Positions 4,973-17,174 of a stretch of 64,000 nt of DNA are shown piece after piece. Each line of letters opens with the position of its first letter. Position 1 is the first letter of the stretch. Under the pieces are notes generated by a model. The model searched no databases. It was not told where the DNA came from and saw nothing but the letters and a program-made list of their open reading frames with translations. The position numbers and the translations under genes were made by a program. The DNA comes from Candidatus Latescibacterota bacterium. GTDB taxonomy: Bacteria > Latescibacterota > UBA2968. The DNA is taken from the NCBI GenBank assembly GCA_965204745.1, contig OZ242010.1:5216001-5280000 (forward strand), given 5' to 3'.

Positions 4973-5950
4973 ATGCCAAACAACAAACAAATCGTCCGTC
5001 AATTGGATATCCTCCGGGAATTTAGCACTCGGAAATACGGCGTGACCATTCGAGAACTTGCCGAGGGACAAGGCGTCTCGACGCGCACAATACACAGGGA
5101 CCTCAACGACCTGCAAGAGGCGGGCTTCTTTCTCGATGCAGAGGTGCGAGAGGGTCAAAAATACTGGAAGTTCGATCAAAATACGGACTTGCTGTCCCTG
5201 AAGTTTCCCATCGACGAAATCATCGCCTTGAAGTTTATCGAGGGCATCGTCAGTTCGCTTGCGGGAACGCCATTCAACGAGGCATTCAACAAAACCCTGA
5301 ACAGAATCCGAACGACGCTTCCCGAGGACATGCGCACGTTTTTAGCACGGGCAGGCACCGCTTATTATCCACACCAGCGCGGGCAAAAGGCGCAAATCCC
5401 GCCCGAAATATTCGCAACGGCCCATCGCGCCATCAAAGAACGCAAAATTTGCAACGTCACCTATCGCGCGATCACCACCGGGCAAACCAAAACCTACCCC
5501 ATCACGCCCTTCAGATTGTTGTATTATCACAATGGATTTTACCTTTTGTGCCGCAATCCGAATTACGGCGATTTGCTCACCCTGGCCGCAGAGCGCATTC
5601 AGGCGCTCGAAATCACAGCGCAACCCTTTGGGTATCCGCACGATCTCGACATAGAAGGCCGCGTTCAACAGGCATTCGGCATCGTCCTTGAGGACCCCAT
5701 ACCGATCAAAGTTCGATTTTCCGCATCGCAAGCCCCTTATGTCAAACAACGGATTTGGCATCCCTCGCAAGAGATCGAGGAATTGGACACCGGCGAGATC
5801 ATCCTGTCGTTTCGAGCTGGCGGCCTTCATGAAATCAAATCGTGGATCTTAAGCCACGGTGCCGAGGCAGAAGTCCTCGAGCCGCCCGGCCTGCGCGAGG
5901 AAATCACCGCGGAACTCAAAAAAAATCTGCATTTTTATCAAAAAACCTGA
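4973..5950 (+). CDS. HTH-WYL-WCX transcriptional regulator
   Basis: N-terminal wHTH (VSTRTIHRDLNDL), WYL region (PFRLLYYHNGFYL..ERI), WCX (WILSHGAEAEVLEPPGLREEI). Confidence 0.9.
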   Translation: MPNNKQIVRQLDILREFSTRKYGVTIRELAEGQGVSTRTIHRDLNDLQEAGFFLDAEVREGQKYWKFDQNTDLLSLKFPIDEIIALKFIEGIVSSLAGTPFNEAFNKTLNRIRTTLPEDMRTFLARAGTAYYPHQRGQKAQIPPEIFATAHRAIKERKICNVTYRAITTGQTKTYPITPFRLLYYHNGFYLLCRNPNYGDLLTLAAERIQALEITAQPFGYPHDLDIEGRVQQAFGIVLEDPIPIKVRFSASQAPYVKQRIWHPSQEIEELDTGEIILSFRAGGLHEIKSWILSHGAEAEVLEPPGLREEITAELKKNLHFYQKT

Positions 5951-5955
5951 TTACC

Positions 5956-5989
5956 TACGACACACCTCGTCATATCCCTTCTTTATCTT
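5956..5989 (+). promoter_or_regulatory. Putative WYL operator / WYL-activated promoter
   Basis: Near-palindrome TACGAC-N7-GTCATA, then CGTCATAT-N8-TATCTT, resembling the PafBC-type TGTCRGTG-N8-TAnnnT layout. Confidence 0.5.
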
Positions 5990-6046
5990 TAAGGCGCGTT
6001 CCAAAGAATGCGTCTTTTTTTGTGATCTATCCCCCCGGGCCCCTTT

Positions 6047-7355
6047 CCTAATCCAAAACCGACAAAAGGGGATCAACATCCTCCTCTACGGCCCTCCGGG
6101 CACGGGCAAAACCGAGTTTGCGCGCACCCTTTGCGGCGCGGTCGGAACGCGGCTCTACGCTATCGGGGACAACGAGGTCGGCGCCGAGGCGCGCCTGAGC
6201 ATCAACCGCTCACAGACCTTGGACTACGCACTCGAAGCCCTCGCAGACGAGCAGAACGCCGCGATCCTCTTCGACGAGATGGAGGATTTTCACCGCGTTG
6301 AAAAACTCTGGCTCAATCGCATTGTCGAGGAAAATCCCGTGCCGATTATCTGGGCGTGCAACGCCATTGGCTACTACCGCGTGATGCAGCCGTTCTTCAT
6401 CGACCGCATGTTGCACGCCATAGAGTTTCGCCACATGTCTGCCCAAGCGCGGCAACGCGTGTACACGGACATCCTGCACGAGACGCACCTGCCCGCCCCT
6501 GAAACGCGCCAACTCGCCGAGGAATTGGCCCGCAACGCCAAGGTCACGCCGCGGCAAGTCGCGATGGCGGTCGACCAAGCCGCGATGGTCAACGGGGATC
6601 CCGAAACCATCCGGCGCAGCGTTGCCCAAAAGGAGAAATTGCGCTATGGCATCCGCCCGCCCGACGCGCGGCCCATCGCGCAATACGATCCGTCATTGGT
6701 CCACGCCGATATCGACATGGCGGAATTGGCGGCCCGGATGGTCGCGTTGGGCCCGCGCCGGTTCGCGCTCTGCTTGAGCGGGCCGCCGGGCACGGGCAAG
6801 ACCGCGTTTGCGCGCCACATCGCCGAGCAGATGGGGATCGACATCCTGCCCAAGCGGGCGTCTGATCTTTTGGGCAAATACGTGGGCGAAACCGAGAAGC
6901 AGATCGCGTCGGCATTTGCCGAGGCGATTGAGACGCGGTCGTTTCTGGTGTTCGACGAGGTGGATTCGCTCCTCATGGATCGGCAATCTGCCCAGCGGTC
7001 GTGGGAAGTGAGCATGGTCAACGAGTTGCTCAGCCAGATGGAGCGACACCCCCTCCCCTTTGCCTGCACCACGAATCAGCGCGACGCCCTTGACCCTGCC
7101 GCTGCGCGCCGCTTCTTGTTCCGCGCCGAGTTCCGCTATCTCGATCCGCCGCGCATTCGCCGCGCGTTCGACTTGTTCTTCAATGCCAAGGCCCCTGCCC
7201 CTGTGCTCGCGCTGACCAAACTCACCCCCGCGGATTTCGCCAACATACGCGAACGCGCAGAGGTGCTCGGCTTCTTGGACGCCCCAAACCGCATCGCATC
7301 CGCCCTCGCCGACGAATGCCACGCAAAACCCGGCAACACCCCAACGGGCTTCTGA
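6047..7355 (+). pseudogene. Tandem AAA+ ATPase, N-terminally truncated
   Basis: Two Walker A (GPPGTGKT) and two Walker B (LFDE, VFDEVD) motifs; no credible start or RBS; homology begins right after a repeat fragment at 6029-6050. Confidence 0.65.
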
Positions 7356-7459
7356 CAACGGAGCGAGATACAACGGGCCGCTTTCCAAGCCCGTTCATCG
7401 CCGAATCGGAGCACAACCGCGTAGCAGTTCATTGAGGCGAGTACGTGATTATGCGGTTG

Positions 7460-7657
7460 AGTGGCCCTCTCGCCTCTCGCCTCTCCCGTCTCCCCTGCGG
7501 AGCGGTTGTGCGGTTGTGCGGCTGGTGGCCGTCTCCCCTCTTGCCTCTCCCGTCTCCCCTGCGGAGCGGTTGTGCGGCGGGGCGGACTGACCACTGACCA
7601 CTGACCACTGACCACTGGTTTTAGGCGGTTGAGTGGCAGGGTGGCCGTCTCCCCTCT
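7460..7657. repeat. Cluster of heptamer repeats (CCTCTCG/CGTCTCC/CCTCTTG; ACTGACC; GCGGTTGT) containing IS110 target sites
   Basis: Visible tandem units; the cluster continues after the IS at 8951-8995. Confidence 0.8.
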
Positions 7658-7671
7658 TGTATCTTGGAAGT

Positions 7672-7856
7672 AAGGGTTAATTAGGAGTTGCGCCCTCGTA
7701 TCGAGATAAGCCATCTTGATGCCCGGCTCGGGGAAGGCCGGCCCCTCTTGAAGGCGATGACCTTGTAGGTAAGATAGGCCCCCCGACCGCCGGGTCTATG
7801 CCGAAGAGTATCTAAGCCCCTTGAGGCTGCATATACAAGACCGGTAGACTTGGCGT
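7672..7856 (+). ncRNA. IS110 bridge RNA, copy 1 (ends approximate)
   Basis: 5' hairpin ATCGAGAT/ATCTTGAT; target loop guides CCCCTCT 7742-7748 and AGGTAAG 7767-7773; donor loop guides AGAGTATCT 7805-7813 and ATACAAG 7833-7839. Confidence 0.9.
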
Positions 7857-7924
7857 CAATGGTCGGGACGCGACCCCGAGCGCGCACCAGATCCCTTACA
7901 ACCCCCTCATCACAGGAGGCCCCC

Positions 7925-8932
7925 ATGTCGAAATCTCACCCCGCTTTTGCCGGCATTGATGTCAGTGCCCGCACGTTGTCCGTTGCCCTGTCCAGACCCG
8001 GACAAGCTGTCATGCAAGCGACCTTTGCCAATGATCCCCAAGCGCATAAGCGGTTGCTGAAGTGGCTCACGAAGGGCGGGCACATGGTCTCTGTGTGCCT
8101 CGAAGCGACCGGGCTTTACAGTTTGGGGGTGGCCTTGGCCTTGCATCGGCATCGCCACACAAAGGTCATGGTCGTCAATCCCAAAGCGATGAGCAAGTAC
8201 GCCCAAGCCTGCATGCAACGGGCGAAGACGGATGCGAAGGATGCGTTGTTGATCCTCGACTATGCCGAGCGCATGCCTTTTGTGCCTTGGCAAGCGCCGA
8301 GCGAGCAACGGCTTCAACTGCAAGCCCTCACCAGACGCATTGACCAACTCAAGCAGGAGATCATCCGCGAACAGAGCCGCAACCACGCGCAGAGCTACCA
8401 CATCCGCAGCACACGTCTCATCGCACGCGATATTCAGGTGAATATTCGACACTTCAAACGCCGGATTGCATACTTGGAAAGCCAAGCCCTCGATCTCGTT
8501 TTGCACGATGAGCCCCTCAAGCGTGCCTACCAACGCCTCTGCTCGACGCCTGGCATCGCGCAAACGAGTGCCTTGCGGCTCTTGGCCGAGTTGACCCTTT
8601 TGCCAGAGGAGATGCAACCGCCCCAGTGGGTCGCACATGCAGGCCTGGATCCCAAACCCAAACAATCCGGAACCGCCAATCCACAAAGACGCATCTCGAA
8701 AACCGGGAATAAGTACCTCCGCCATGCCCTCTATATGCCTGCCTGGGTGGCCATCAGACACGAAGGCCATGTCAAAGCCTTCTATGACCAACTCATCGCC
8801 CGCGGCAAGAAACCTTTGCAGGCTATCGTTGCGGTGATGCGAAAGTTGCTCCATTCGATCTGGGGCATGTTGCGCCATGACCAAGATTTTGAGGGCGAAA
8901 AATTCTATCGAATCACCCCGAAAACCCCTTGA
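7925..8932 (+). CDS. IS110 family transposase / bridge recombinase
   Basis: DEDD RuvC-like motifs GIDVS, CLEATG, KTDAKD; Tnp-domain QSG serine; ISKTGNKYLR; RBS aggagg. Confidence 0.97.
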   Translation: MSKSHPAFAGIDVSARTLSVALSRPGQAVMQATFANDPQAHKRLLKWLTKGGHMVSVCLEATGLYSLGVALALHRHRHTKVMVVNPKAMSKYAQACMQRAKTDAKDALLILDYAERMPFVPWQAPSEQRLQLQALTRRIDQLKQEIIREQSRNHAQSYHIRSTRLIARDIQVNIRHFKRRIAYLESQALDLVLHDEPLKRAYQRLCSTPGIAQTSALRLLAELTLLPEEMQPPQWVAHAGLDPKPKQSGTANPQRRISKTGNKYLRHALYMPAWVAIRHEGHVKAFYDQLIARGKKPLQAIVAVMRKLLHSIWGMLRHDQDFEGEKFYRITPKTP

Positions 8933-9052
8933 CCTTTTAAGAGAGTATCTTGCCTCTTGCTTCTCCCCTCTCCCCTGTGGTTGTGCGGCGGGGCGGCGGC
9001 GAAGCCTACCATTTTTATCTTGATTTCGTTCAAATAATCGCTAACTTGGGGT

Positions 9053-9260
9053 TGTCAACCATCGAGCAGAGCCCGCATGTCGGGTAGCCTGCTGAATAGA
9101 ATAGCCTACTCAACTGGCGGCGGGTCGCTCCCGGCACCAAGGCGAATAAGTAGGACCCTTCCCGCATCTCTCTGCGTGATGGTTGACACTGCCCGGCCCC
9201 TATGCTGGCGCAGCGTCAACCTGCCTTCAATCTGTCAACCATCCACGTCAACACGCAAAG
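9053..9260 (+). ncRNA. Putative structured leader RNA with alternative pairings
   Basis: TGTCAACCATC at 9053 and 9233, its complement at 9178, hairpin 9181-9221; promoter-like TTGATT-16-TAACTT at 9020-9047. Confidence 0.5.
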
Positions 9261-9545
9261 GAGAGATGCCATGTTCATGTTCAAGAACACCTTCACTTAA
9301 CCCCCCGCAACGAGTTCCATTCTCTTTTTGTCTGACCTAACGCAATGGTTTGCACCACGCGCTCTTGCGCCCCTGCGTCGCGTCAGTCACCAACTTTCTC
9401 AAATTCCCCGTGCGTCCAAAAGTGGGCTTGATTTTGGACAGGGGAAATCATTCTGCTATGTACCCCAATCCGAAACAGAAAGCGTTGTTTGGGTTGGGCA
9501 ATGTCGCACGAGTCGCAAACCACCTGTTTCAAAGGAGATGTGTCA

Positions 9546-10495
9546 TGACGATGCAAGCACAACTCAACCAGTATTACAAGGATGTTGGTATCGCGCCTGT
9601 GGTCCCTAAGGATGTTGGCATCACGCCTGTGGATTCTATGGAAGACATCCAAAAAAAGATGTTCTGCGAGTTTCCGTGCGAAAAGAGGGCCGACTGCCGG
9701 GAAGCCTGCCTTGGAGCTTGGAACAAAAAAGAAGAGTTTGTGTTTGAACCTCGTATTGATGGCGTTACCGTCAGCCAAGAATATCAAGCCGGAAAGTACC
9801 ACGGGGACAGAATCCCCCGGATTGTGGTTCTCTCTCTGTCCGCTCCACAGCCTAGTCCTGGGCAAATTCTGTCCATTCCACAGCCGAAGGAAGAGCAAGA
9901 TAAGCCTGCCGCAAATTCCAAGACTCGCTGGCGGGCCTCTCACTGGCCTGAAACTTTGGCGATGGTCCGGAGCTTTCTTCTTTCCTTCATTGCATGTGAG
10001 AACTTTCCAGGGCCAGCGACGTACCAGGAAGCCAAAAGTAAAAAGGAGATCGAAAAACTCTTTGTTCATGTGCGAACGGCAAAGTGTTGCTCCAATGCCA
10101 AAGGAACCAGTCAAGAGCCTGGTAAAGTGTACGAGAATTGTGGCGGTTATCTCGGGAAGGAACTGAGCATTCTTAAACCCGACGTGATCGTTACCCAAGG
10201 CAACCAAGCACATTGGAGGGCAGTAGAGCATGCTTTTGAGGAAAATGCAAATATCTCAGTTGAGGAAGTAAGAGGTATTGAGACCAAGAATTGCATCGCA
10301 TGCATCGTGAATCTAAAGGAAGGCAACCAGCGCGTCTATTGGCTACCGTTGTACCATCCTCGTGCTGTACGCTATTATTATCCCCAGGCTGGTGATAAAA
10401 TTGACTGTGAGAGCAATGTTGGGAGTTGGAGTGCAATGCGGAAGAACCTCGTGCGCTATGGCGAGGCGATCAAGGATTTCATCAACGATAGATAA
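9546..10495 (+). CDS. Uracil-DNA glycosylase superfamily-like protein, divergent
   Basis: AKCC..NCGGYLGKELSILKPDVIVTQG and LPLYHP resemble UDG-fold motifs; RBS aaaggag; lower GC than flanks. Confidence 0.6.
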
Positions 10496-10506
10496 TGTGA
10501 TGAGAA

Positions 10507-10545
10507 AGGGGGTGATACCTTGTGCTGTCATCTCCTTTTAACTTT
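10507..10545 (+). terminator. Intrinsic terminator of a shared family
   Basis: GGGGGTGATA-CCTTGTGC-TGTCATCTCC-TTTT; near copy at 15370-15402. Confidence 0.7.
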
Positions 10546-11248
10546 TCATTGTTTCGAGCAGTTTCACGCGAGCGGCGAGGAGCGCAACGTGATCGAAGAA
10601 TGGCGCAAACGCGCTGGACGCAGGTGATGTGAACGCTTTATCTGTTGTGCGGAAAACAACAGACACACTCATTTTTTTTGCTCTTATTGGAGGCAGTCAT
10701 GAGTCGTTTGCTCGGTTATCTCGCAATTCTTGCCCTCGCGCTGGCAATGCACTATTCCGTAGCAGCACAAAACAATGCCAATGCCGACTTTGATGGCGAT
10801 GGCACGGTTGGCTTTTCAGACTTCTTGGCGTTTGCAGGGCAATATGGCACCCAGCGCGGAGACGGCAGATACCAAGCCAAGTACGATCTGAATAGCGATG
10901 GCATGATAGACTTTGCCGACTTCCTGCTCTTTGCCAGCAGTTTTGGCAACACGCACATTCCGGCCGCCAATTCGGGCCAACCCGTCGTTGACCAAAACAT
11001 CGATCTGCCGGCTGGGAATTACATTCAATTCCGCTTTACTGTCGATACAGACACACAGCAAAACGTCGTTCTCCAAGGCGAGTTCAGCGTTGAGAACGGC
11101 ACCGTGCAGATGGCTGTGATGAACGAATCCGAATTTCGGACATGGCAAACAGGGGGAATGCCCGGCGTGCTTTATAGCCCGGGCAATACCTCTGGCGAGA
11201 CCTTTCGCCTGCCCATTGACGATAGCGACACCTACTATATCGTTTTTA

Positions 11249-12066
11249 GGTTCTGTTGACATTTTGTTTTAGAGCGATGAGCGTGGCCGCAAAAGCGAGA
11301 AAGCCTCGATAACTCGTGCTGAGTTTCTCAAAGCGAGCAAATATCCTGCGATACTGCTTCATTTTTCCAATCAACCGCTCAATCAAATTGCGTTGCTTAT
11401 ACCGATGGCGATCATAATCACGCGGGGTCTTGCGATAAGACCGGGGCGGAATCACGGCAACCTGTCCATGGTGAGAAAGGACGTCCAGAAACGCTTGTGA
11501 ATCATAGCCCTTATCCGCGATGACAGATCGGCTCTCATACCCAGCGATTAACGCTTCGGCTTGCGTGATATCGTGGGTTTGTCCCGGTGTGAGTCGAAAC
11601 CGGAGCGGGAGGCCACGCGCATCTGTGCAGAGATGGATTTTGGTGCTGAACCCGCCTCGGCTCTTGCCGAGGGCTTGCGCGGCTTGCCCCCCTTTTTTTT
11701 TGAGGCACCCGCTGCACAGGCATGAGCACGCACGACAGTGCTGTCAATGATCAGACATGCCAAGTCTGGATCAGACGTAAAATGCTGGTGCATGCGTTCC
11801 CACACGCCATACCGGCACCAGCGAGCAAAGCGTTTATAGACTGTGTTCCACTTCCCGTACTGTGCGGGCAACTGACGCCACTGACCACCCGAGCGCATCA
11901 CCCACAGAACCGCTTCAATGAAGCGTTTGCAACCGGCTTCCTCGCCGACATAGACGCGAGGGCATTCGCGGATGAATGCGAGAATTTTAGGCCACTGGTT
12001 CGCAGAAAGAATAAGGTTTGACATACACACAGAGTAACTCAAAATATCCCAAATGTCAACAGAACC
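11249..12066 (-). mobile_element. IS5-family element (IS427-like), 818 bp, two-ORF transposase with slippery A-run
   Basis: TIR GGTTCTGTTGACA; TA flanks; WRQLP..YGKWNTVY.RF, IDST, YKQRNLIERL; A9G6 at the ORF junction; near-identical to 62260-63077. Confidence 0.92.
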
Positions 12067-12068
12067 TA

Positions 12069-12109
12069 ATCAGTCCATAACGCTAAAAAAATAAAATGTC
12101 AACACGACC
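12069..12109 (+). mobile_element. Right-end remnant of a second, related IS5 element
   Basis: Ends TGTCAACACGACC-TA; reads ..LKK*NVNTT* versus ..LKQNVNRT* of the intact IS. Confidence 0.7.
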
Positions 12110-13568
12110 TAGCAACAGGGGGTCAACTGCTGTTACGATTGAGGCCGATATTTCCCTGGGTCCTGACGGTGGGGACGGTGGGGACGGTGGGGATAGCGAG
12201 ACAGTTGTCATTTCCGATTCCACGCTACGCGCTGTGATTTCGGGCAATTTAGGCAAGGCACGCCGTGCGCCTATCACCCGGGCTGACATGGCGACCTTGA
12301 GGCGGATTTACGCACGATATGAGAATATTAACGATTTGACAGGGCTTGAGTTTGCAACCAACCTGACAAGGTTAGACCTTGGCTACAACCAAATATCGGA
12401 TATCACCGCGCTAGCGGGATTAACCAAACTGACATGGTTAGACCTTCACGACAACAAGATATCGGATATCACCGCGCTAGCGGGATTAACCAAACTGGAC
12501 ACGTTAGACCTTGGCTACAGAAACCGAATATCGGATATCACCGCGCTAGCGGGATTAACCAAACTGACATGGTTAGACCTTTCCGACAACCGAATATCGG
12601 ATATCACCGCGCTAGCGGGATTAACCAAACTGACATGGTTAGACCTTCGTAGCAACCAGATATCGGATATCGCCGTGCTAGCGGGATTAACCAAACTGGA
12701 CACGTTAGACCTTGGCGGCAACCAGATATCGGATTCGGATATCGCCGCGCTAGCGGGATTAACCAAACTGACATGGTTAGACCTTGGCTATAACCACCTA
12801 TCGGATATCGCCGCACTATCGACCTTAACCAACCTGGAAGGGTTAAGGCTTTACGAGAACCACCTATCGGATATCGCCGCGCTAGCGGCCTTAACCAACC
12901 TGACAAGGTTAGACCTTCACTACAACCAAATATCGTATATCGCCGTGCTATCGGGATTAACCAAGTTGACAAGGTTAGACCTTCGCTACAACCCGTTGAG
13001 TGCCACATCAATCAACACGCACATTCCGGCCCTTCGGGCCAGAGGGGTTAGGGTGTATTTTTAGTTCAGTGGACAAGGCTTGCACCGCGAAAGGGGGTGA
13101 CTGATGGCAAAAAAGTTGCCTTCGTTCCGATTCGGGCGTAGGGTTAGGGCGTTGTTCGATTATTATTTTTCAAAAGGGGGAATTTTTCCCCGTTTATCGA
13201 ATGCTCGTGGGGCCTGGGAATCCCGTGCGGTACGGCATTCGGAAAATCACTCTCAATAGTTTTAGGTGGTCCCACCCGGCCTTCTAATTCCTCGTTTTGA
13301 GAGTGACGAGTGAATTAGAAGGCTTTTCTTGTGGGGGATTGCAATGGATGCTGTTCGTATATCCTTTGATCGTTTGGCGTGTATGGAGGGGCCCCAATAG
13401 TTGTCTAAGGAGTATTTGTGGGCGATAGCGCGGGCAATCACCGAGGCTCCTTTTGCGGAATTGCGCGGGGGGCTTTGTGATTCGATGGAGAGTCGCTATT
13501 ACGACTATGAAAAAAAGATTAAAGCGGAAGGGGCGTATCAACGCTTCTTGCAGGAAGAAGGAGGTTAG

Positions 13569-13880
13569 ATGGAAAATTTTAGACGTGTGGTTTCGTGGAT
13601 CGCCTTCGCCGTTTTGGTGATCGTCACCCTTGGTTTTTTTGGTTTCTATCCACGCGATAATTTTCGTGAGGCTTCGGCAGTCCAGATCATAATTGGGTGG
13701 ACTTTATATTTGGGGATACTCATTTCGGTCTATTATCTGGCTTCGGATTCTAAGATTGCCAAGCGGTTGCGTAGGGATGAGGAGAGGGAAATGCATGAAC
13801 TTTTTGAGGCCGTGCGCGAGCGGTGGCCGAAGGCGAGCGAGAGGAAGGCGAAGGTACCAAAAAGTGGTACGACTGATTAA
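13569..13880 (+). CDS. Small two-TM hypothetical membrane protein
   Basis: Strong RBS aaggagg; two hydrophobic segments; charged tail. Confidence 0.65.
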   Translation: MENFRRVVSWIAFAVLVIVTLGFFGFYPRDNFREASAVQIIIGWTLYLGILISVYYLASDSKIAKRLRRDEEREMHELFEAVRERWPKASERKAKVPKSGTTD

Positions 13881-14033
13881 AAAAAGCGTCACCGGGTGGG
13901 GTAACCTGGCGACGCCACGTCCTCAAAAGCCTCTGGCCCGTAGATGCCCTCAAGTTGGCAGAACGCTTGCTTTCGCCCGATGTATGACACCCCCGCCTAA
14001 CCGCGCCGAAATAGACAGAGAGCGTTTTGCCAC

Positions 14034-14062
14034 TTGACATAGCACAGATAGTACTATATACT
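14034..14062 (+). promoter_or_regulatory. Sigma70 promoter
   Basis: TTGACA-17-TATACT; palindrome ATAGTACTAT overlaps the spacer and -10. Confidence 0.8.
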
Positions 14063-14126
14063 GTATCTAACCGCCGAAGCAGAAAGCGTTGTTTGAGATA
14101 GATTCATTCACAGGAAAGGAAGGGCT

Positions 14127-15206
14127 ATGTTATTCAGACTCATTCGCACGGATCAAAAGCCCATATTTCAGCGGTTTATGAAATGTAAGGCATCAGATTT
14201 GAACCTGAAAGAAAAGGATGTAGAAAACTGGCTAGCAGAGAACCCGGAGTTGTTGTTCGGCGTCGAGCAGGTATTAGTGATTACACAATCTATCGGGGGT
14301 CAACATATGGCCGACATAATGGCTTTGGACGCCGATGGGCGTCTGGTCATTGTGGAAATAAAACGGGACCGGTCTAACAGAGAGACAGTTGGGCAGTTGC
14401 TTGAATATGCTGCTGCCAGAGTAGGAAGTAACTATGAGGACCTAGAAGAATTGCACCGGAAGTACTGGCACCAGTGCAAAAAAAAAGATCCATACGTTTC
14501 CTTAATTGAGCAATTTCGAGCTCTAACCGATGACCCCAAAGCTGATCAGAGGGACATTCCCAAATCTCGGCAAGGTCATCGGATTTGTATTGTGGCGCCC
14601 AGTTCTGATGAGGGTTTGTCTCGAATTGTAGAATGGTTAAAAGAGTATGGTGTGCCGATTAGCTTTGTGCCTTTCACGCTCTATACAGACAGAGATAACG
14701 ACGACATTCTACTGGACATAGAGCCCCTACCTGAGCCGTTGCCTGAAGGTCATGCGACCCAAAAAAATGTTATGGAAGACCGAGACCGATTATTCAATAC
14801 AAATGAAAAAAACGCACAGGGGGCTTACAAAAAGATGTTTGAGAAAGGTGTAATCGCTATTTATGGCTATGAGACAGGCCCTCAGAATCTAATGGGAAGT
14901 GTCAAAGGCCAGCGGGTATTTGCTTATGTCAATGGCAAGGGAATTTTGGCAGTTGGAAAGATCGTTAATTCTGAACCCGTGGCTGTGGCTGGTGACACTG
15001 ACACTGTCTTTGGTGTAGGTGAAGAGTTTCAGGTAGAAGTTGATTGGGAGACAATCGTAGATGAAGATAAGGGCGTAACAATCACGCAAGTCAAAAAGCA
15101 ACACGGCTATAGGCTCCCTGTCCGCAATGTCTTTTGCAACATGTATTGTCCTTCTGATGTCACAAACTGGATTTTTGAAGAGCTTCAACGCAACGCAAAA
15201 AAATAA
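14127..15206 (+). CDS. NucS-like PD-(D/E)XK endonuclease with putative C-terminal EVE/PUA-like domain
   Basis: EKDVENWL.ENP, ADIMALD...VIVEIKR, GQLLEY; C-terminal GILAVGKI..VEVDW; AT-rich. Confidence 0.7.
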   Translation: MLFRLIRTDQKPIFQRFMKCKASDLNLKEKDVENWLAENPELLFGVEQVLVITQSIGGQHMADIMALDADGRLVIVEIKRDRSNRETVGQLLEYAAARVGSNYEDLEELHRKYWHQCKKKDPYVSLIEQFRALTDDPKADQRDIPKSRQGHRICIVAPSSDEGLSRIVEWLKEYGVPISFVPFTLYTDRDNDDILLDIEPLPEPLPEGHATQKNVMEDRDRLFNTNEKNAQGAYKKMFEKGVIAIYGYETGPQNLMGSVKGQRVFAYVNGKGILAVGKIVNSEPVAVAGDTDTVFGVGEEFQVEVDWETIVDEDKGVTITQVKKQHGYRLPVRNVFCNMYCPSDVTNWIFEELQRNAKK

Positions 15207-15369
15207 TGACCGCTTCAATTTGCGCGGTTCATGGAAGATGTGATCGACAACCGCGCAACCGAATGCGTTGAAAGAAATGGAACGAACAGGAGAAAGCCCT
15301 ATTCCATGGGCAAGCATCAAAAAAGAGATCGGATTGTAGCGTACACCCCGGTAAGTATTCATTTTTCGA

Positions 15370-15410
15370 GGAGGTGACACCTTGTGCTGTCGCCTCCTTT
15401 TCATTTTATT
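15370..15410 (+). terminator. Intrinsic terminator of a shared family
   Basis: GGAGGTGACA-CCTTGTGC-TGTCGCCTCC-TTTT. Confidence 0.7.
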
Positions 15411-15467
15411 AACCACTGCATCGTATTTGACATATATTTTTTTTATTACGATTCAATTGGATGACTT

Positions 15468-15791
15468 ATGGATGCGAAAAAGAAAAAACACCTCGAATCT
15501 GCCGGGTGGCGCGTTGGTTCAGCAACAGATTTTCTCGGCCTGAGTGAAGGAGAAGCCGCGTACATCGACCTCAAGCTCACGTTGAGTGAGAAAGTGCGTC
15601 AATGTCGCAAGCGAAAAAAATTGACCCAGACCCAACTGGCGCAACGCCTCAAATCCAGTCAGTCTCGCGTTGCCAAAATCGAAGCGGGCGACCCCTCTGT
15701 TTCGCTGGATTTGTTGATCCGATCCTTGCTCACCCTGGGCGTCACCAAAACCGCTCACTGTTCCCCCCTTCCTCGCAGGAAGGGGGGCTAG
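15468..15791 (+). CDS. XRE-family HTH antitoxin-like protein (orphan; C-terminus supplied by a repeat)
   Basis: GWRVGS..DFLGLS..E and LTQTQLA.RL.SSQSRVAKIEAGDPSVSLDLL. Confidence 0.8.
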   Translation: MDAKKKKHLESAGWRVGSATDFLGLSEGEAAYIDLKLTLSEKVRQCRKRKKLTQTQLAQRLKSSQSRVAKIEAGDPSVSLDLLIRSLLTLGVTKTAHCSPLPRRKGG

Positions 15792-15804
15792 GGGGGTAGG
15801 TCCC
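15746..15804. repeat. Palindromic repeat family A, half element
   Basis: ccccccttcctcgcaggaagggggg..gggtaggtccc matches 23424-23516. Confidence 0.8.
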
Positions 15805-15821
15805 AATAAAAGGAGCGGGAC

Positions 15822-17174
15822 ATGGCTGACCATTACGACGTCATTGTCGCGGGTGCGGGCATTGGGGGGTTGTGCGCGGCTTTGCGTGCTCGGGAAAACG
15901 GGGCGTCTGTTGCCATCCTCGAAAAAGCCGACCAAATCGGCGGATCAGCCGCGGCATCGGGCGGCACGATCTGGTGCGCGTCAACCATAAGCGAATGGCT
16001 CAAAGTGCAACCCCATGGCGATAGGGCCCTCGGCAGCGCGCTGATTGACCACTTCCGCCTGGGCATAGACTGGCTCATCAAGCAGGGCGTTTCCCTGCAA
16101 GCGCGTGCCGAACCCAATCCCTACAAATTCCAGCGCACCATTTATCAACTCCTGCCCGACGCGCGCGCGGCAATGGAAACATTGAGCGACCGATTTCGCG
16201 CAAGGGGTGGGCGCATCTTCACAAACACCGCCCTGACCGGATTGCTCGGCGGCAATGGCGCCCCCATCGCAGGCGTTCAAACCGCGCATTCGGAATGGAC
16301 ATCCCGCGCTGTCATCCTATCGACCGGCGGCTTTCAGGGCAACCCCAAGTTGCGGGCGCGGTATTTTGGCGTGCAATCCGATCACATGATCGTGCGCGGC
16401 GTGCCGCAAAACACCGGGGGCGGCTTTCAAAGCGCGCTCGCCGCAGGCGCGCAACCCGTCGGCCCATTCAACCGCTTCTACGGCCACCTCTTGCCCGCGC
16501 CGCCCGCGCGAGTTGGCCTGCACAACTTTCTCGCTATCAAACCCGACTTCAGCGAATACGCGGTGTTGATCAACCTCAACGGCGAGCGATTCGACGACGA
16601 ATATTTGGGCGACGAAGTCACCTGCCACTCCCTCGTGCAACAACGCAACGCCACCGCCATCCTCGTCTTTGACCAACACATCCGCGACAACCAAGCCGCG
16701 CTCTCCCAATGGCCCGCCCCAGATAATGACCGCGTCACCAACATCCGCGAAGCAGGCGGCGAAGTCCTCGAAACACCCTCTTTGCATGAGCTCGCCCACG
16801 CCTTGACCAACCGCTGGCACATCCCCTTCCACGCATTCCAAACCACAATGACCGACTACGCCGCGGCCTGCGCTTCGGGCAATGGGCAAACCCTGTCCAT
16901 CCCAAAATCCGGCGGCCTCATCCCGCTCGACACGCCCCCCTATTACGCCATCCGAACCGTGCCCGGCATCACCTTCACGTACGGCGGGGCCAAAGTCGAT
17001 GCCAACGCACAAATTTTGGACAAAACCGACTGCCCCATCCCCGGCCTCTTCGCGGCCGGCGCCGACTGCGGGGGCATCTACACCCGCGGCTACACGGGCG
17101 GCTTGAGCATGGGCCTCGCCTACGGCCTCATCGCAGGCGAAGGCGCGGCCCAACACGCTCGGCTTTCGGGTTGA
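15822..17174 (+). CDS. FAD-dependent oxidoreductase (fumarate reductase/succinate dehydrogenase flavoprotein family)
   Basis: GAGIGG, LSTGGF, NTGGG, NLNGERF.DE, TFTYGG, IPGLFAAG. Confidence 0.85.
   Translation: MADHYDVIVAGAGIGGLCAALRARENGASVAILEKADQIGGSAAASGGTIWCASTISEWLKVQPHGDRALGSALIDHFRLGIDWLIKQGVSLQARAEPNPYKFQRTIYQLLPDARAAMETLSDRFRARGGRIFTNTALTGLLGGNGAPIAGVQTAHSEWTSRAVILSTGGFQGNPKLRARYFGVQSDHMIVRGVPQNTGGGFQSALAAGAQPVGPFNRFYGHLLPAPPARVGLHNFLAIKPDFSEYAVLINLNGERFDDEYLGDEVTCHSLVQQRNATAILVFDQHIRDNQAALSQWPAPDNDRVTNIREAGGEVLETPSLHELAHALTNRWHIPFHAFQTTMTDYAAACASGNGQTLSIPKSGGLIPLDTPPYYAIRTVPGITFTYGGAKVDANAQILDKTDCPIPGLFAAGADCGGIYTRGYTGGLSMGLAYGLIAGEGAAQHARLSG

Follow-up and report, generated by a model that had tools for sequence, protein, structure and literature searches.

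A shared promoter-like leader precedes non-homologous defence-type genes in a variable hot spot of a Latescibacterota genus

Why should two genes that have no homology to each other stand behind the same short 5' motif and ahead of the same hairpin? The question is raised by a stretch of 64,000 nucleotides (nt) from a Candidatus Latescibacterota bacterium (GenBank assembly GCA_965204745.1, contig OZ242010.1, positions 5,216,001 to 5,280,000). This whole stretch is hereafter called the window (G000:C1:5216001-5280000, where G000 is the genome of 5,482,115 bases from which it comes). A sequence-only reading noticed that a gene resembling uracil-DNA glycosylases (UDG; gene 1) and a gene resembling the nuclease NucS (gene 2) carry both motifs, and proposed a standard expression frame into which variable genes are swapped, with the 5' motif perhaps acting as an antiterminator. 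We consider it likely that the 5' motifs are the best-kept core of a promoter-leader, which is composed of a -35 hexamer TTGAYC, a spacer of 16-17 nt, a -10 hexamer TATATT or TATCTT and the box ACAGAAA(G/A)CGTT(G)TTTG. This leader appears to have been reused by local duplication and recombination within a defence hot spot, and the 3' motifs appear to be ordinary terminators. The general idea of a reused expression frame was correct, and the antitermination mechanism is unsupported. The features of the window on which the argument rests are as follows.

9424..9544, plus strand: putative promoter-leader copy 1, with decayed hexamers, the inner part of a hairpin and a leader with the Shine-Dalgarno site AAAGGAGA
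9470..9491, plus strand: 5' motif copy 1, apex and 3' arm of the hairpin
9545..10495, plus strand: gene 1, beginning at 9545 and not at 9546, UDG-superfamily glycosylase-like, 316 amino acids (aa), Cys-rich N-terminal part
10504..10548, plus strand: predicted intrinsic terminator copy 1, with a 14-pair stem, an 8-nt loop and a T run (motif 10508-10539)
14034..14126, plus strand: putative promoter-leader copy 2, with TTGACA-17-TATACT (14034-14062), leader core and type-B 3' leader ATTCATTCACAGGAAAGG
14074..14095, plus strand: 5' motif copy 2, the box core
14127..15206, plus strand: gene 2, NucS-like PD-(D/E)XK nuclease whose last ~140-175 aa form a C-terminal EVE/YTH/ASCH-like (PUA-fold) reader domain
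15368..15410, plus strand: predicted intrinsic terminator copy 2, the island's right-border terminator, with a 12-pair stem and a T run (motif 15370-15401)

The 5' motif CCGAARCAGAAAGCGTTGTTTG occurs at both sites with 21 of 22 positions identical, and the 3' motif GGRGGTGAYACCTTGTGCTGTCRYCTCCTTTT lies behind both genes, as had been reported. When up to 3 mismatches are allowed, each motif has two matches in the window and none in 100 shuffles. A search of the whole genome with 4 and 6 mismatches allowed gave a single extra match, with 4 mismatches, at 4,973,871. Because this hit (profile position 4,973,832) lies within an open reading frame (ORF) and has a profile E value of 0.19, we attribute it to chance. 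Copy 2 of the 5' motif does begin 12 nt past the TATACT of TTGACA-17-TATACT, a site that matches at 11 of 12 positions and is the top promoter-like site in 8900-15900. The two genes are also AT-richer than the genome, with GC fractions of 0.49 (gene 1) and 0.45 (gene 2) against 0.565, and BLASTP detects no similarity between their proteins (best E value 0.14).

Comparison with relatives places the 22-nt motif within a larger element. We used a genus set of 21 genomes (G000 included) and a family set of 31 genomes. An alignment of 20 copies from 13 genomes yields the plan GGCTTGATC, with a -35 hexamer TTGAYC, a spacer of 16-17 nt and a -10 hexamer TATATT or TATCTT. The short leaders of relatives read TTGATC-16-TATATT by eye, and in this short form the -10 is followed directly by ACAGAAA(A/G)CGTT(T/G)TTTGAG. 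The 22-nt motif would be a box located at or just after the expected transcription start. The module ends in a leader that carries a strong Shine-Dalgarno site and reaches the start codon. The predicted promoter type fits that of the organism's rrn promoters, which are TTGACT-17-TATATT and TTGACT-17-TAAATT. In G016 and G018 the unit is ~130 nt long and consists of promoter-like hexamers, a long imperfect hairpin and a leader ...AAACCACCTGTTTCAAAGGAGA, followed by ATG. Copy 1 in the window and the G016 leader that precedes an Mrr-type gene share 92% identity across 78 nt, and copy 2 shares 83% with G016 leader 2 across 46 nt. The proposal of a frame for swapped genes stands in that different genes do lie within a common 5' and 3' frame. 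However, the terminator is uncoupled from the leader, and the 22-nt motif is merely the best-kept core of a leader of 80-130 nt. We rejected the idea that the leader is coding sequence, given that the fixed spacing of the Shine-Dalgarno site and ATG trivially accounts for its in-frame openness, and that a 2-nt indel breaks the frame upstream.

A sequence-only profile (R2) built from the 20 aligned copies was run over the 21 genus genomes. Among the candidates scored it gives 25 matches in 14 of the 21 genomes, most of which had also served as building material for the profile. Of these, 22 fall in a single hot spot bounded by an AAA-ATPase gene and an FAD-oxidoreductase gene; the other three belong to a secondary array of G018 (array b). 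The 25 matches correspond to 24 units, since one match is a partial tandem duplicate in G018. The program nhmmer, applied to the fetched island stretches, returned the same 25 matches. Copy 1 of the window is matched at 9424-9501 (E 1.1e-17 in the R2 scan, 3.7e-17 with nhmmer) and copy 2 at 14034-14105 (E 1.4e-6 and 5.3e-6, respectively). G000 alone was scanned exhaustively for the profile with nhmmer, and the two window copies are its sole matches below E 1e-5. A 123-nt BLAST query found the leader unit in 5 of the 21 genus genomes, and a pattern scan of public genome contigs found it in G016 and G018 only. The confinement of the leader to the hot spot and array b argues against ordinary dispersed repeats, which the sequence-only reading had named as an outcome that would count against it. 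Co-occurrence of the two motifs in the genus is partial, with the 5' leader in 14 of 21 genomes and the terminator behind part of the units. Matches to the leader core at eight metagenome loci were set aside as chance because none has the flanking leader. Rfam likewise yielded only two chance-level hits far below gathering scores in window positions 8800-15900, and none at E up to 0.1 in the G018 stretches L038 and L024. This is consistent with the earlier remark that no named family is known for the motif pair.

The hot spot itself is defined by the following features.

5859-7355: AAA-ATPase gene, left border (PADLOC IetA-like, E 1e-28)
7356..15821: variable low-GC island (GC 0.44-0.53, compared to ~0.6 in the flanks)
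15822-17174: FAD-oxidoreductase gene, right border (library scan)

The FAD gene is present in 20 of the 21 genus genomes and the ATPase gene in 12 of 21. Both border genes lie on a single contig in 10 genus genomes, where they are 6.9-13.9 kb apart. The contents between the same two genes differ among these 10 genomes, and therefore the position is a variable hot spot.

Several observations indicate that genes and leaders are uncoupled. For 15 of 22 units the nearest leader precedes a gene of a different family. The seven same-family units comprise three reciprocal cross-species pairs, which are probably orthologous, and G018a_1, whose nearest leader belongs to its within-genome paralogue G018a_3. 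A replaced cassette is evident next to the FAD gene when G000 and G016 are compared, and involves one further feature of the window.

13921..14004, plus strand: upstream flank of unit 2, which shares 86% identity across 84 nt with the orthologous flank of the G016 GmrSD cassette

After this flank, the leader core and type-B 3' leader are 83% identical between the two genomes, and the terminator with the 20 nt before it is 94% identical. The same frame encloses a NucS-EVE gene in G000 and a GmrSD gene in G016. In addition, G001 and G019 each carry two mutually similar leaders with different genes behind them. A duplication is visible in G018 array b, where a block of 542 nt (reader domain plus next leader) is tandemly repeated at 85% identity (L038:10256-10793 and 10806-11343). 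Consequently, a leader, a Shine-Dalgarno site and an ATG stand before an ORF that encodes nothing but the reader domain. Internal direct repeats of 90-260 nt with 87-98% identity also occur in the islands of G019, G020, G014, G017 and G005 (L042, L043, L046, L047 and L039), and part of them include a small antitoxin-like gene and helix-turn-helix (HTH) genes. Given these repeats, module reuse seems to be general in the hot spot.

These arrangements can be accommodated by a simple scheme. Each framed gene is probably a separate small transcription unit, in the manner of a phage moron. The module would have spread by local tandem duplication, deletion and recombination. Shared leaders, the EVE-like domain and terminators would serve as homology patches that permit gene replacement. 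The outcome would be non-homologous single-gene defence nucleases and glycosylases behind near-identical leaders. Intact leader copies are 81-86% identical, and the promoter block of the short leaders has a mean identity of 82%, compared to 73-85% for paralogous coding DNA. Because the leaders resemble paralogous coding DNA in this respect, there is no need to invoke a recent horizontal spread or selection of unusual strength.

The 3' motifs have the anatomy of ordinary intrinsic (Rho-independent) terminators. The predicted RNA folds have free energies of -17.7 kcal/mol (z -3.5) for copy 1 and -20.5 kcal/mol (z -6.5) for copy 2, each followed by a U run, and both hairpins are the top terminator-like sites of our scan. 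They lie 12 nt (copy 1) and 163 nt (copy 2) past the stop codons. The pairing-preserving changes noted earlier are present, in that all four differences between the stems keep G-C, A-U or G-U pairs on the plus strand. On reading, all four are one-sided transitions and none is a double compensatory change. In G000, G016, G018, G001, G006 and G008 a hairpin of the same family precedes the FAD gene by no more than ~450 nt. Thus, copy 2 is the border terminator and copy 1 its paralogue. Terminators of this family follow 7 of 12 units in G000, G016, G018 and G001, compared to none of the 10 units in the other ten genomes. Arrays have one common terminator at their end, and one copy elsewhere in G018 follows an unrelated gene. 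These observations together indicate that the 5' and 3' motifs are not an obligatory pair. Outside the genus, the terminator core with up to 3 mismatches gave 5 hits in 61 genomes, which we dismiss as chance because a reversed control pattern gave 7 hits overall.

What the leaders precede is also informative. Both window genes had been described as defence-like, and this view is upheld. Gene 1 matches Pfam UDG (PF03167) at E 7.6e-5, with 23.2 bits against a gathering cut-off of 24.3. Its AlphaFold2 model (pLDDT 85.5) points to the fold of the UDG superfamily, although at modest scores: the PDB matches listed by Foldseek are almost all UDG family 4, TDG/MUG and UdgX proteins (best E 1.2e-4, TMt only up to 0.52). 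The protein has 172 homologues, nearly all unnamed, and PADLOC contains no model for UDG-like genes, gene 1 included. Gene 2 matches the candidate single-gene defence model PDC-S11 of PADLOC (E 1e-30, residues 19-282). It also matches NucS_C of Pfam (E 6e-4) and the NCBIfam NucS model below its cut-off (E 1e-9), and its DNA is ~70% identical to genes in the G015 and G017 islands.

At its C-terminus gene 2 carries a domain that shares 57% identity with the C-terminal end of a UDG-like fusion from G018. A model of the stand-alone G018 version (pLDDT 97) has 27 PDB matches at E up to 0.001 (TMq 0.51-0.67), including the EVE proteins 2gbs and 2eve, YTH and ASCH proteins, VcaM4I and THYN1 bound to 5mC DNA. 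By this modelling, the domain has a PUA-like fold. Pfam EVE itself gives only a weak match to the domain, in one relative, and Pfam otherwise fails to recognise it. Its fusion partners include UDG, NucS-like, HSDR_N, TIR, HNH, helicase-HNH, GmrSD, SduA_C and NOV_C. The domain family (L038:10801-11220; window 14769-15206) is rare, with 77 representatives in 1.84 billion proteins. Library scans that covered the genes behind all units except the one in G002 assign the framed genes as follows.

NucS-like nuclease with reader: G000_u2, G015, G017 (PADLOC PDC-S11)
UDG-like: G000_u1, G001, fragment in G017 (no PADLOC match)
UDG-like with reader: G018, G019 (no PADLOC match)
Reader domain alone: G018 (no PADLOC match)
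Mrr_cat fusion (Mrr-type): G016, G018 (PDC-S02)
GmrSD: G016 (HEC-06)
PDDEXK_4: G018 twice, G001, G005, G011, G007, G020, G004, and weakly G014 (PDC-S26)
Secreted protein: G018 (no family match)
346-aa protein: G019 (no family match)

Nine gene families therefore stand behind the leaders, and most are predicted single-gene nucleases or glycosylases. Modified DNA is the probable target of the framed enzymes, whose action would resemble type IV restriction. The description of gene 1 and gene 2 as unrelated holds for the pair in the window, but the two appear to belong to one modular set that shares the reader domain. Fusions of a UDG-like protein with the reader are encoded at L038:9390-10670 in G018 and at L042:2718-3980 (minus strand) in G019, and they also occur in the proteins P0123 and P0006. 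In P0006, which shares 62% identity with gene 1, the reader forms the C-terminal end. Brig1 is reportedly a defence glycosylase of the UDG superfamily. Brig2 is a further member of this kind (10.1101/2025.10.29.685425), and the main text of that report on defence glycosylases mentions neither PUA domains nor fusions, its nine word-starts in 'eve' apparently being ordinary words. A gene of ~325 aa follows both G018 arrays. In array a it is flanked by 114-nt direct repeats (93% identical, L024:13396-13509 and 14846-14959) that include the terminator and the 3' end of this gene, and the associated stretch in L038 is 12431-12536. The protein has no significant match in Pfam, NCBIfam or PADLOC; it may be Rpn/YhgA-like.

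Some leaders carry a long hairpin. In copies from G000, G016 and G018, ~23 nt (CTCTGCGACAGCCCAATCCGAA) are inserted after the -10. The insert is the reverse complement of the downstream leader, and so the box becomes the apex of a hairpin. We infer that the insert arose as an inverted duplication of the leader in the lineage of these three genomes, and that the resulting hairpin would now be decaying. In G016 and G018 the hairpin has 23-26 base pairs with the box at its apex, and three intact copies from these genomes have predicted free energies of -34.5 to -41 kcal/mol (z -4.3 to -5.7). Unit 1 of the window (G000_u1) retains the inner stem alone (-26.7 kcal/mol, z -1.43), and unit 2 (G000_u2, z +1.78) and G016_2 (z +0.47) fold no better than shuffles. 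All three decayed copies precede intact ORFs. A hairpin model (R1) finds nine places in 3 of the 31 family genomes, all in the two arrays. Among these nine copies 84.7% of cells are paired, compared to 30-42% in slid controls. Evidence for covariation is lacking in these copies, as none of 26 pairs has changed on both sides and column shuffles did as well in 300 of 500 trials. Given all 11 leaders, RNAalifold recovered no more than an apical stem of 7 pairs, in which compensatory changes are absent. The palindrome is thus genuine, but it is young, lineage-specific and decaying in the two copies of the window. Short leaders do not have the left arm of the hairpin. Because most copies in the genus have no hairpin, this structure is not needed to explain the family.

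Several points weigh against the account of a promoter-leader reused by duplication and recombination. The starts and stops of transcription at leaders and hairpins are predictions from sequence. All genomes are metagenome-assembled, and repeats are prone to misassembly in such data. The R2 scan scored 150 of ~800-1500 first-look candidates per genome, and weak copies outside G000 could escape. No sigma-70-like site in leader copy 1 passes the promoter scan, and the hexamers of the hairpin-type leaders, TTGCTT and TATCTT, are weak (7 of 12 positions by hand count). For these two reasons, some copies might be intercistronic elements rather than promoters. Conservation of the box ACAGAAA.CGT is similar to that of the -10, and no part of the element varies less than the apical loop; both features hint at a function beyond descent. 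Finally, among six type-A units with five gene families, similarity stops within ~8 nt of the start codon, a limit that fits random recombination only if selection filters the outcomes.

The conservation of the box leads to another view of the module, namely that it is mainly a shared cis-regulatory site. The conserved spacer, or the box with the apical stem-loop, might be an operator in DNA or a protein-binding stem-loop in RNA, through which one trans-acting factor would jointly control the potentially self-toxic nucleases of the hot spot. The box and the AAATTAT.TTG block are indeed the best-kept columns in the 20 copies from 13 genomes, and the apical part is kept even by decayed copies, G000_u2, G016_2 and G005 among them. 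The box also lies at or just past the expected start, a classical position for a repressor, and the leader family is confined to defence genes of one locus. However, no candidate regulator is consistently linked to the units, and HTH genes occur in some islands only. Overall conservation does not exceed that of neighbouring coding DNA, hairpin-type leaders have the box ~23 nt farther from the -10, and none of the hairpin's 26 pairs covaries. We therefore find a mainly regulatory role doubtful, and note that it is compatible with our account of how the copies arose. A bolder proposal, which we judge unlikely, is that the hot spot is a dedicated 'socket'. Here the private leader, together with the hairpin in one clade, would act in cis for an active system by which single-gene defences against modified DNA are captured or jointly switched (or both), with a role like that of attI and Pc in an integron but without an integrase. 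Candidates for its trans-acting component would be a factor that reads the box or loop, the double AAA-ATPase or the ~325-aa G018 gene flanked by terminator repeats. If this were true, promoter association would reveal new defence genes, such as that for the 346-aa protein of G019.

Three other proposals fare less well against the same data. The sequence-only reading suggested that the motif is a boxA, with a boxB-like hairpin, that acts as a Nus-factor antitermination signal and shields AT-rich foreign genes from Rho. BoxA elements do protect untranslated CRISPR arrays from Rho. The rrn leader of this genome has a boxB-like hairpin followed by the rrn boxA TGTTCTTTGAAAA, and the T-rich string GTTGTTTGA in both window copies matches 8 of 9 positions of its core GTTCTTTGA. 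It lies early in the predicted transcript beside a hairpin, and the two genes of the window are AT-richer than the genome. However, the boxA consensus (G/U)(C/U)UCUUU carries an invariant C, which none of the 20 aligned copies has, its place being taken by G, T or A. In hairpin copies the box pairs as part of a stem of -34 to -41 kcal/mol, 2 nt of it are missing in 5 of 9 of these (GCGTTTTGGG), and its A-rich 3' half (GAAAA) is unmatched. Moreover, the genes are translated from strong Shine-Dalgarno sites, which would already couple ribosomes to RNA polymerase. The occurrence of CGTTGTTT near mreB, cited as a further instance, is explained by chance (4 matches compared to 2.87 expected, with 33 of 100 shuffles reaching 4). 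Antitermination is thus very unlikely. We regard it as highly improbable that the hairpin is an attC-like or otherwise structured recombination site and that the arrays are integron-like, served by a site-specific recombinase. G018 does recall integrons in its tandem arrays, where short cassettes of one gene each alternate with units of ~130 nt that contain an imperfect hairpin, and integron cassettes include UDG-like defence glycosylases with structured repeats between them (10.1101/2025.10.29.685425). The inner stem CCCAAT/GTTGGG resembles the attC consensus RYYYAAC/GTTRRRY. On the other hand, the R-box-like bases lie in the middle of the stem and not at its base. The integron integrase model TIGR02249 has no match above cut-off in four genomes, where the best score is 85 bits compared to the required 265 and lies far from the islands. 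The element, with its promoter-like hexamers and Shine-Dalgarno site, is located 5' of the genes and not 3' of a promoterless ORF, the hairpin is absent from most copies in the genus, and it decays while the ORFs persist. Lastly, the units might be miniature mobile elements that insert upstream of genes, such as miniature inverted-repeat transposable elements or REP- or ERIC-like palindromes with an outward promoter. A unit does form an imperfect palindrome of 60-75 nt beside promoter-like sequence, as in Correia or ERIC elements, both of which are named as promoter carriers in PMC3575422. Since the copies are not dispersed (nine for R1, in three of the 31 family genomes, and 25 for R2, none of them outside the hot spot and array b) and no target-site duplications or terminal repeats were seen, we consider this origin extremely improbable.

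The preferred account, promoter-leader reuse within a hot spot, has its closest known counterpart in putative mobile promoters, which are highly similar upstream sequences before non-homologous genes in one genome (Nijveen, Matus-Garcia and van Passel 2012, PMC3575422). The definition used there asks for 80% identity or more along 50 nt or more before non-paralogous genes within one genome. G018 provides such a pair, as b_1 and b_3 are 81% identical over 125 nt before a UDG-EVE and an Mrr-type gene. Within G000 the definition fails, because the window copies share 22 nt only. Mobile promoters and this leader are alike in that the mobilization route is unknown and there is no Rfam match. Unlike mobile promoters, the leader family is confined to one hot spot and a secondary array in 14 species of a genus, reaches through the Shine-Dalgarno site to the start codon, and has a long hairpin in one lineage. 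The units further resemble phage morons, in which a gene with its own promoter and terminator, often for defence or fitness, is inserted between other genes. Both are autonomous promoter-gene-terminator units that are AT-richer than their surroundings. However, no prophage context is seen at this locus, and we know of no morons that share one promoter and terminator sequence across unrelated genes. Defence hot spots are positions between conserved core genes where defence genes vary by species, and the present locus has the same character, but its genes share a private promoter-leader family. A related case is reported in PMC11065993, where anti-defence genes of archaeal viruses were found via a regulatory sequence. 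There, as here, a shared regulatory sequence marks functionally related non-homologous genes, although those genes are viral and anti-defence whereas ours occupy a bacterial chromosomal defence locus. A narrow literature search on shared promoters in defence islands found no description of the present arrangement, which does not prove its absence.

The island also contains an IS110 transposase gene, a gene for a protein with dockerin/EF-hand motifs and a gene for a leucine-rich-repeat protein, along with the features listed here.

9010..9425, plus strand: left flank of unit 1 (86% identical to G016, 91% to G018, ~80% to G020 and G009)
11246..12110, minus strand: IS5-like insertion, with a DUF4096 transposase ORF (Pfam E 2e-20) and terminal inverted repeats I1 and I6
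15232..15346, plus strand: 3' remnant of a RelB-like antitoxin gene, 73-77% identical to small genes in ten island stretches from nine genomes
15468..15791, plus strand: XRE-type HTH gene, antitoxin- or repressor-like (Pfam HTH_3 E 1.7e-10; NCBIfam Y4mF/HipB-like, below cut-off), between terminator 2 and the FAD gene

The left flank of unit 1 (416 nt) contains a 19-nt inverted repeat (9053-9071 and 9170-9188), and its sole ORF, of 87 aa, has no family match. The IS5-like insertion is recent and polymorphic: in contigs from X4, X8 and X13, three other runs, position 11246 is followed directly by 12110, which represents an allele without it. Contigs of X8 also match 14066-15225 and 8995-9420 and then diverge from the window, and an X4 contig stops at 9542. 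These breaks hint no more than weakly that variant junctions exist at the leaders. The leucine-rich-repeat protein (12096-13064) has ten tandem repeats of 66 nt (22 aa), and length variants are present in contigs of other runs.

The RelB-like remnant has a second, shorter match in G020 (84% over 61 nt). Intact RelB-like genes of 85-92 aa recur in the islands of relatives, at times twice, and the intact G005 copy scores 24 bits against RelB antitoxin models whose cut-off is 50 (NCBIfam). In G020 such a gene is followed by an ORF of 95 aa that appears RelE/ParE-like by eye. At the borders of the island, the AAA-ATPase frame has 500 aa in G000 compared to 952-1031 aa in the syntenic copies of 11 relatives, and thus the G000 gene may be truncated or frameshifted. 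The FAD gene of G018 (L024 ~15026-15045) has a stop at its fifth codon (ATGGCTGACCATTAAGAC) and has no match at E 1e-100 or better.

The finding reveals no new mechanism, and the integron-like and antitermination readings are weak. Its meaning lies in how defence genes are exchanged: they turn over singly within a chromosomal hot spot of an uncultured and probably sponge-associated phylum, where ready-made promoter-leader, terminator and reader-domain pieces are reused around differing effector genes. The putative private promoter can serve as a marker, which makes the genes behind it candidate defence genes, such as those for the 346-aa protein of G019 and the UDG-EVE fusions. Taken together, the UDG-like, NucS-, Mrr-, GmrSD- and PDDEXK-type proteins point to strong pressure from phages with modified DNA.

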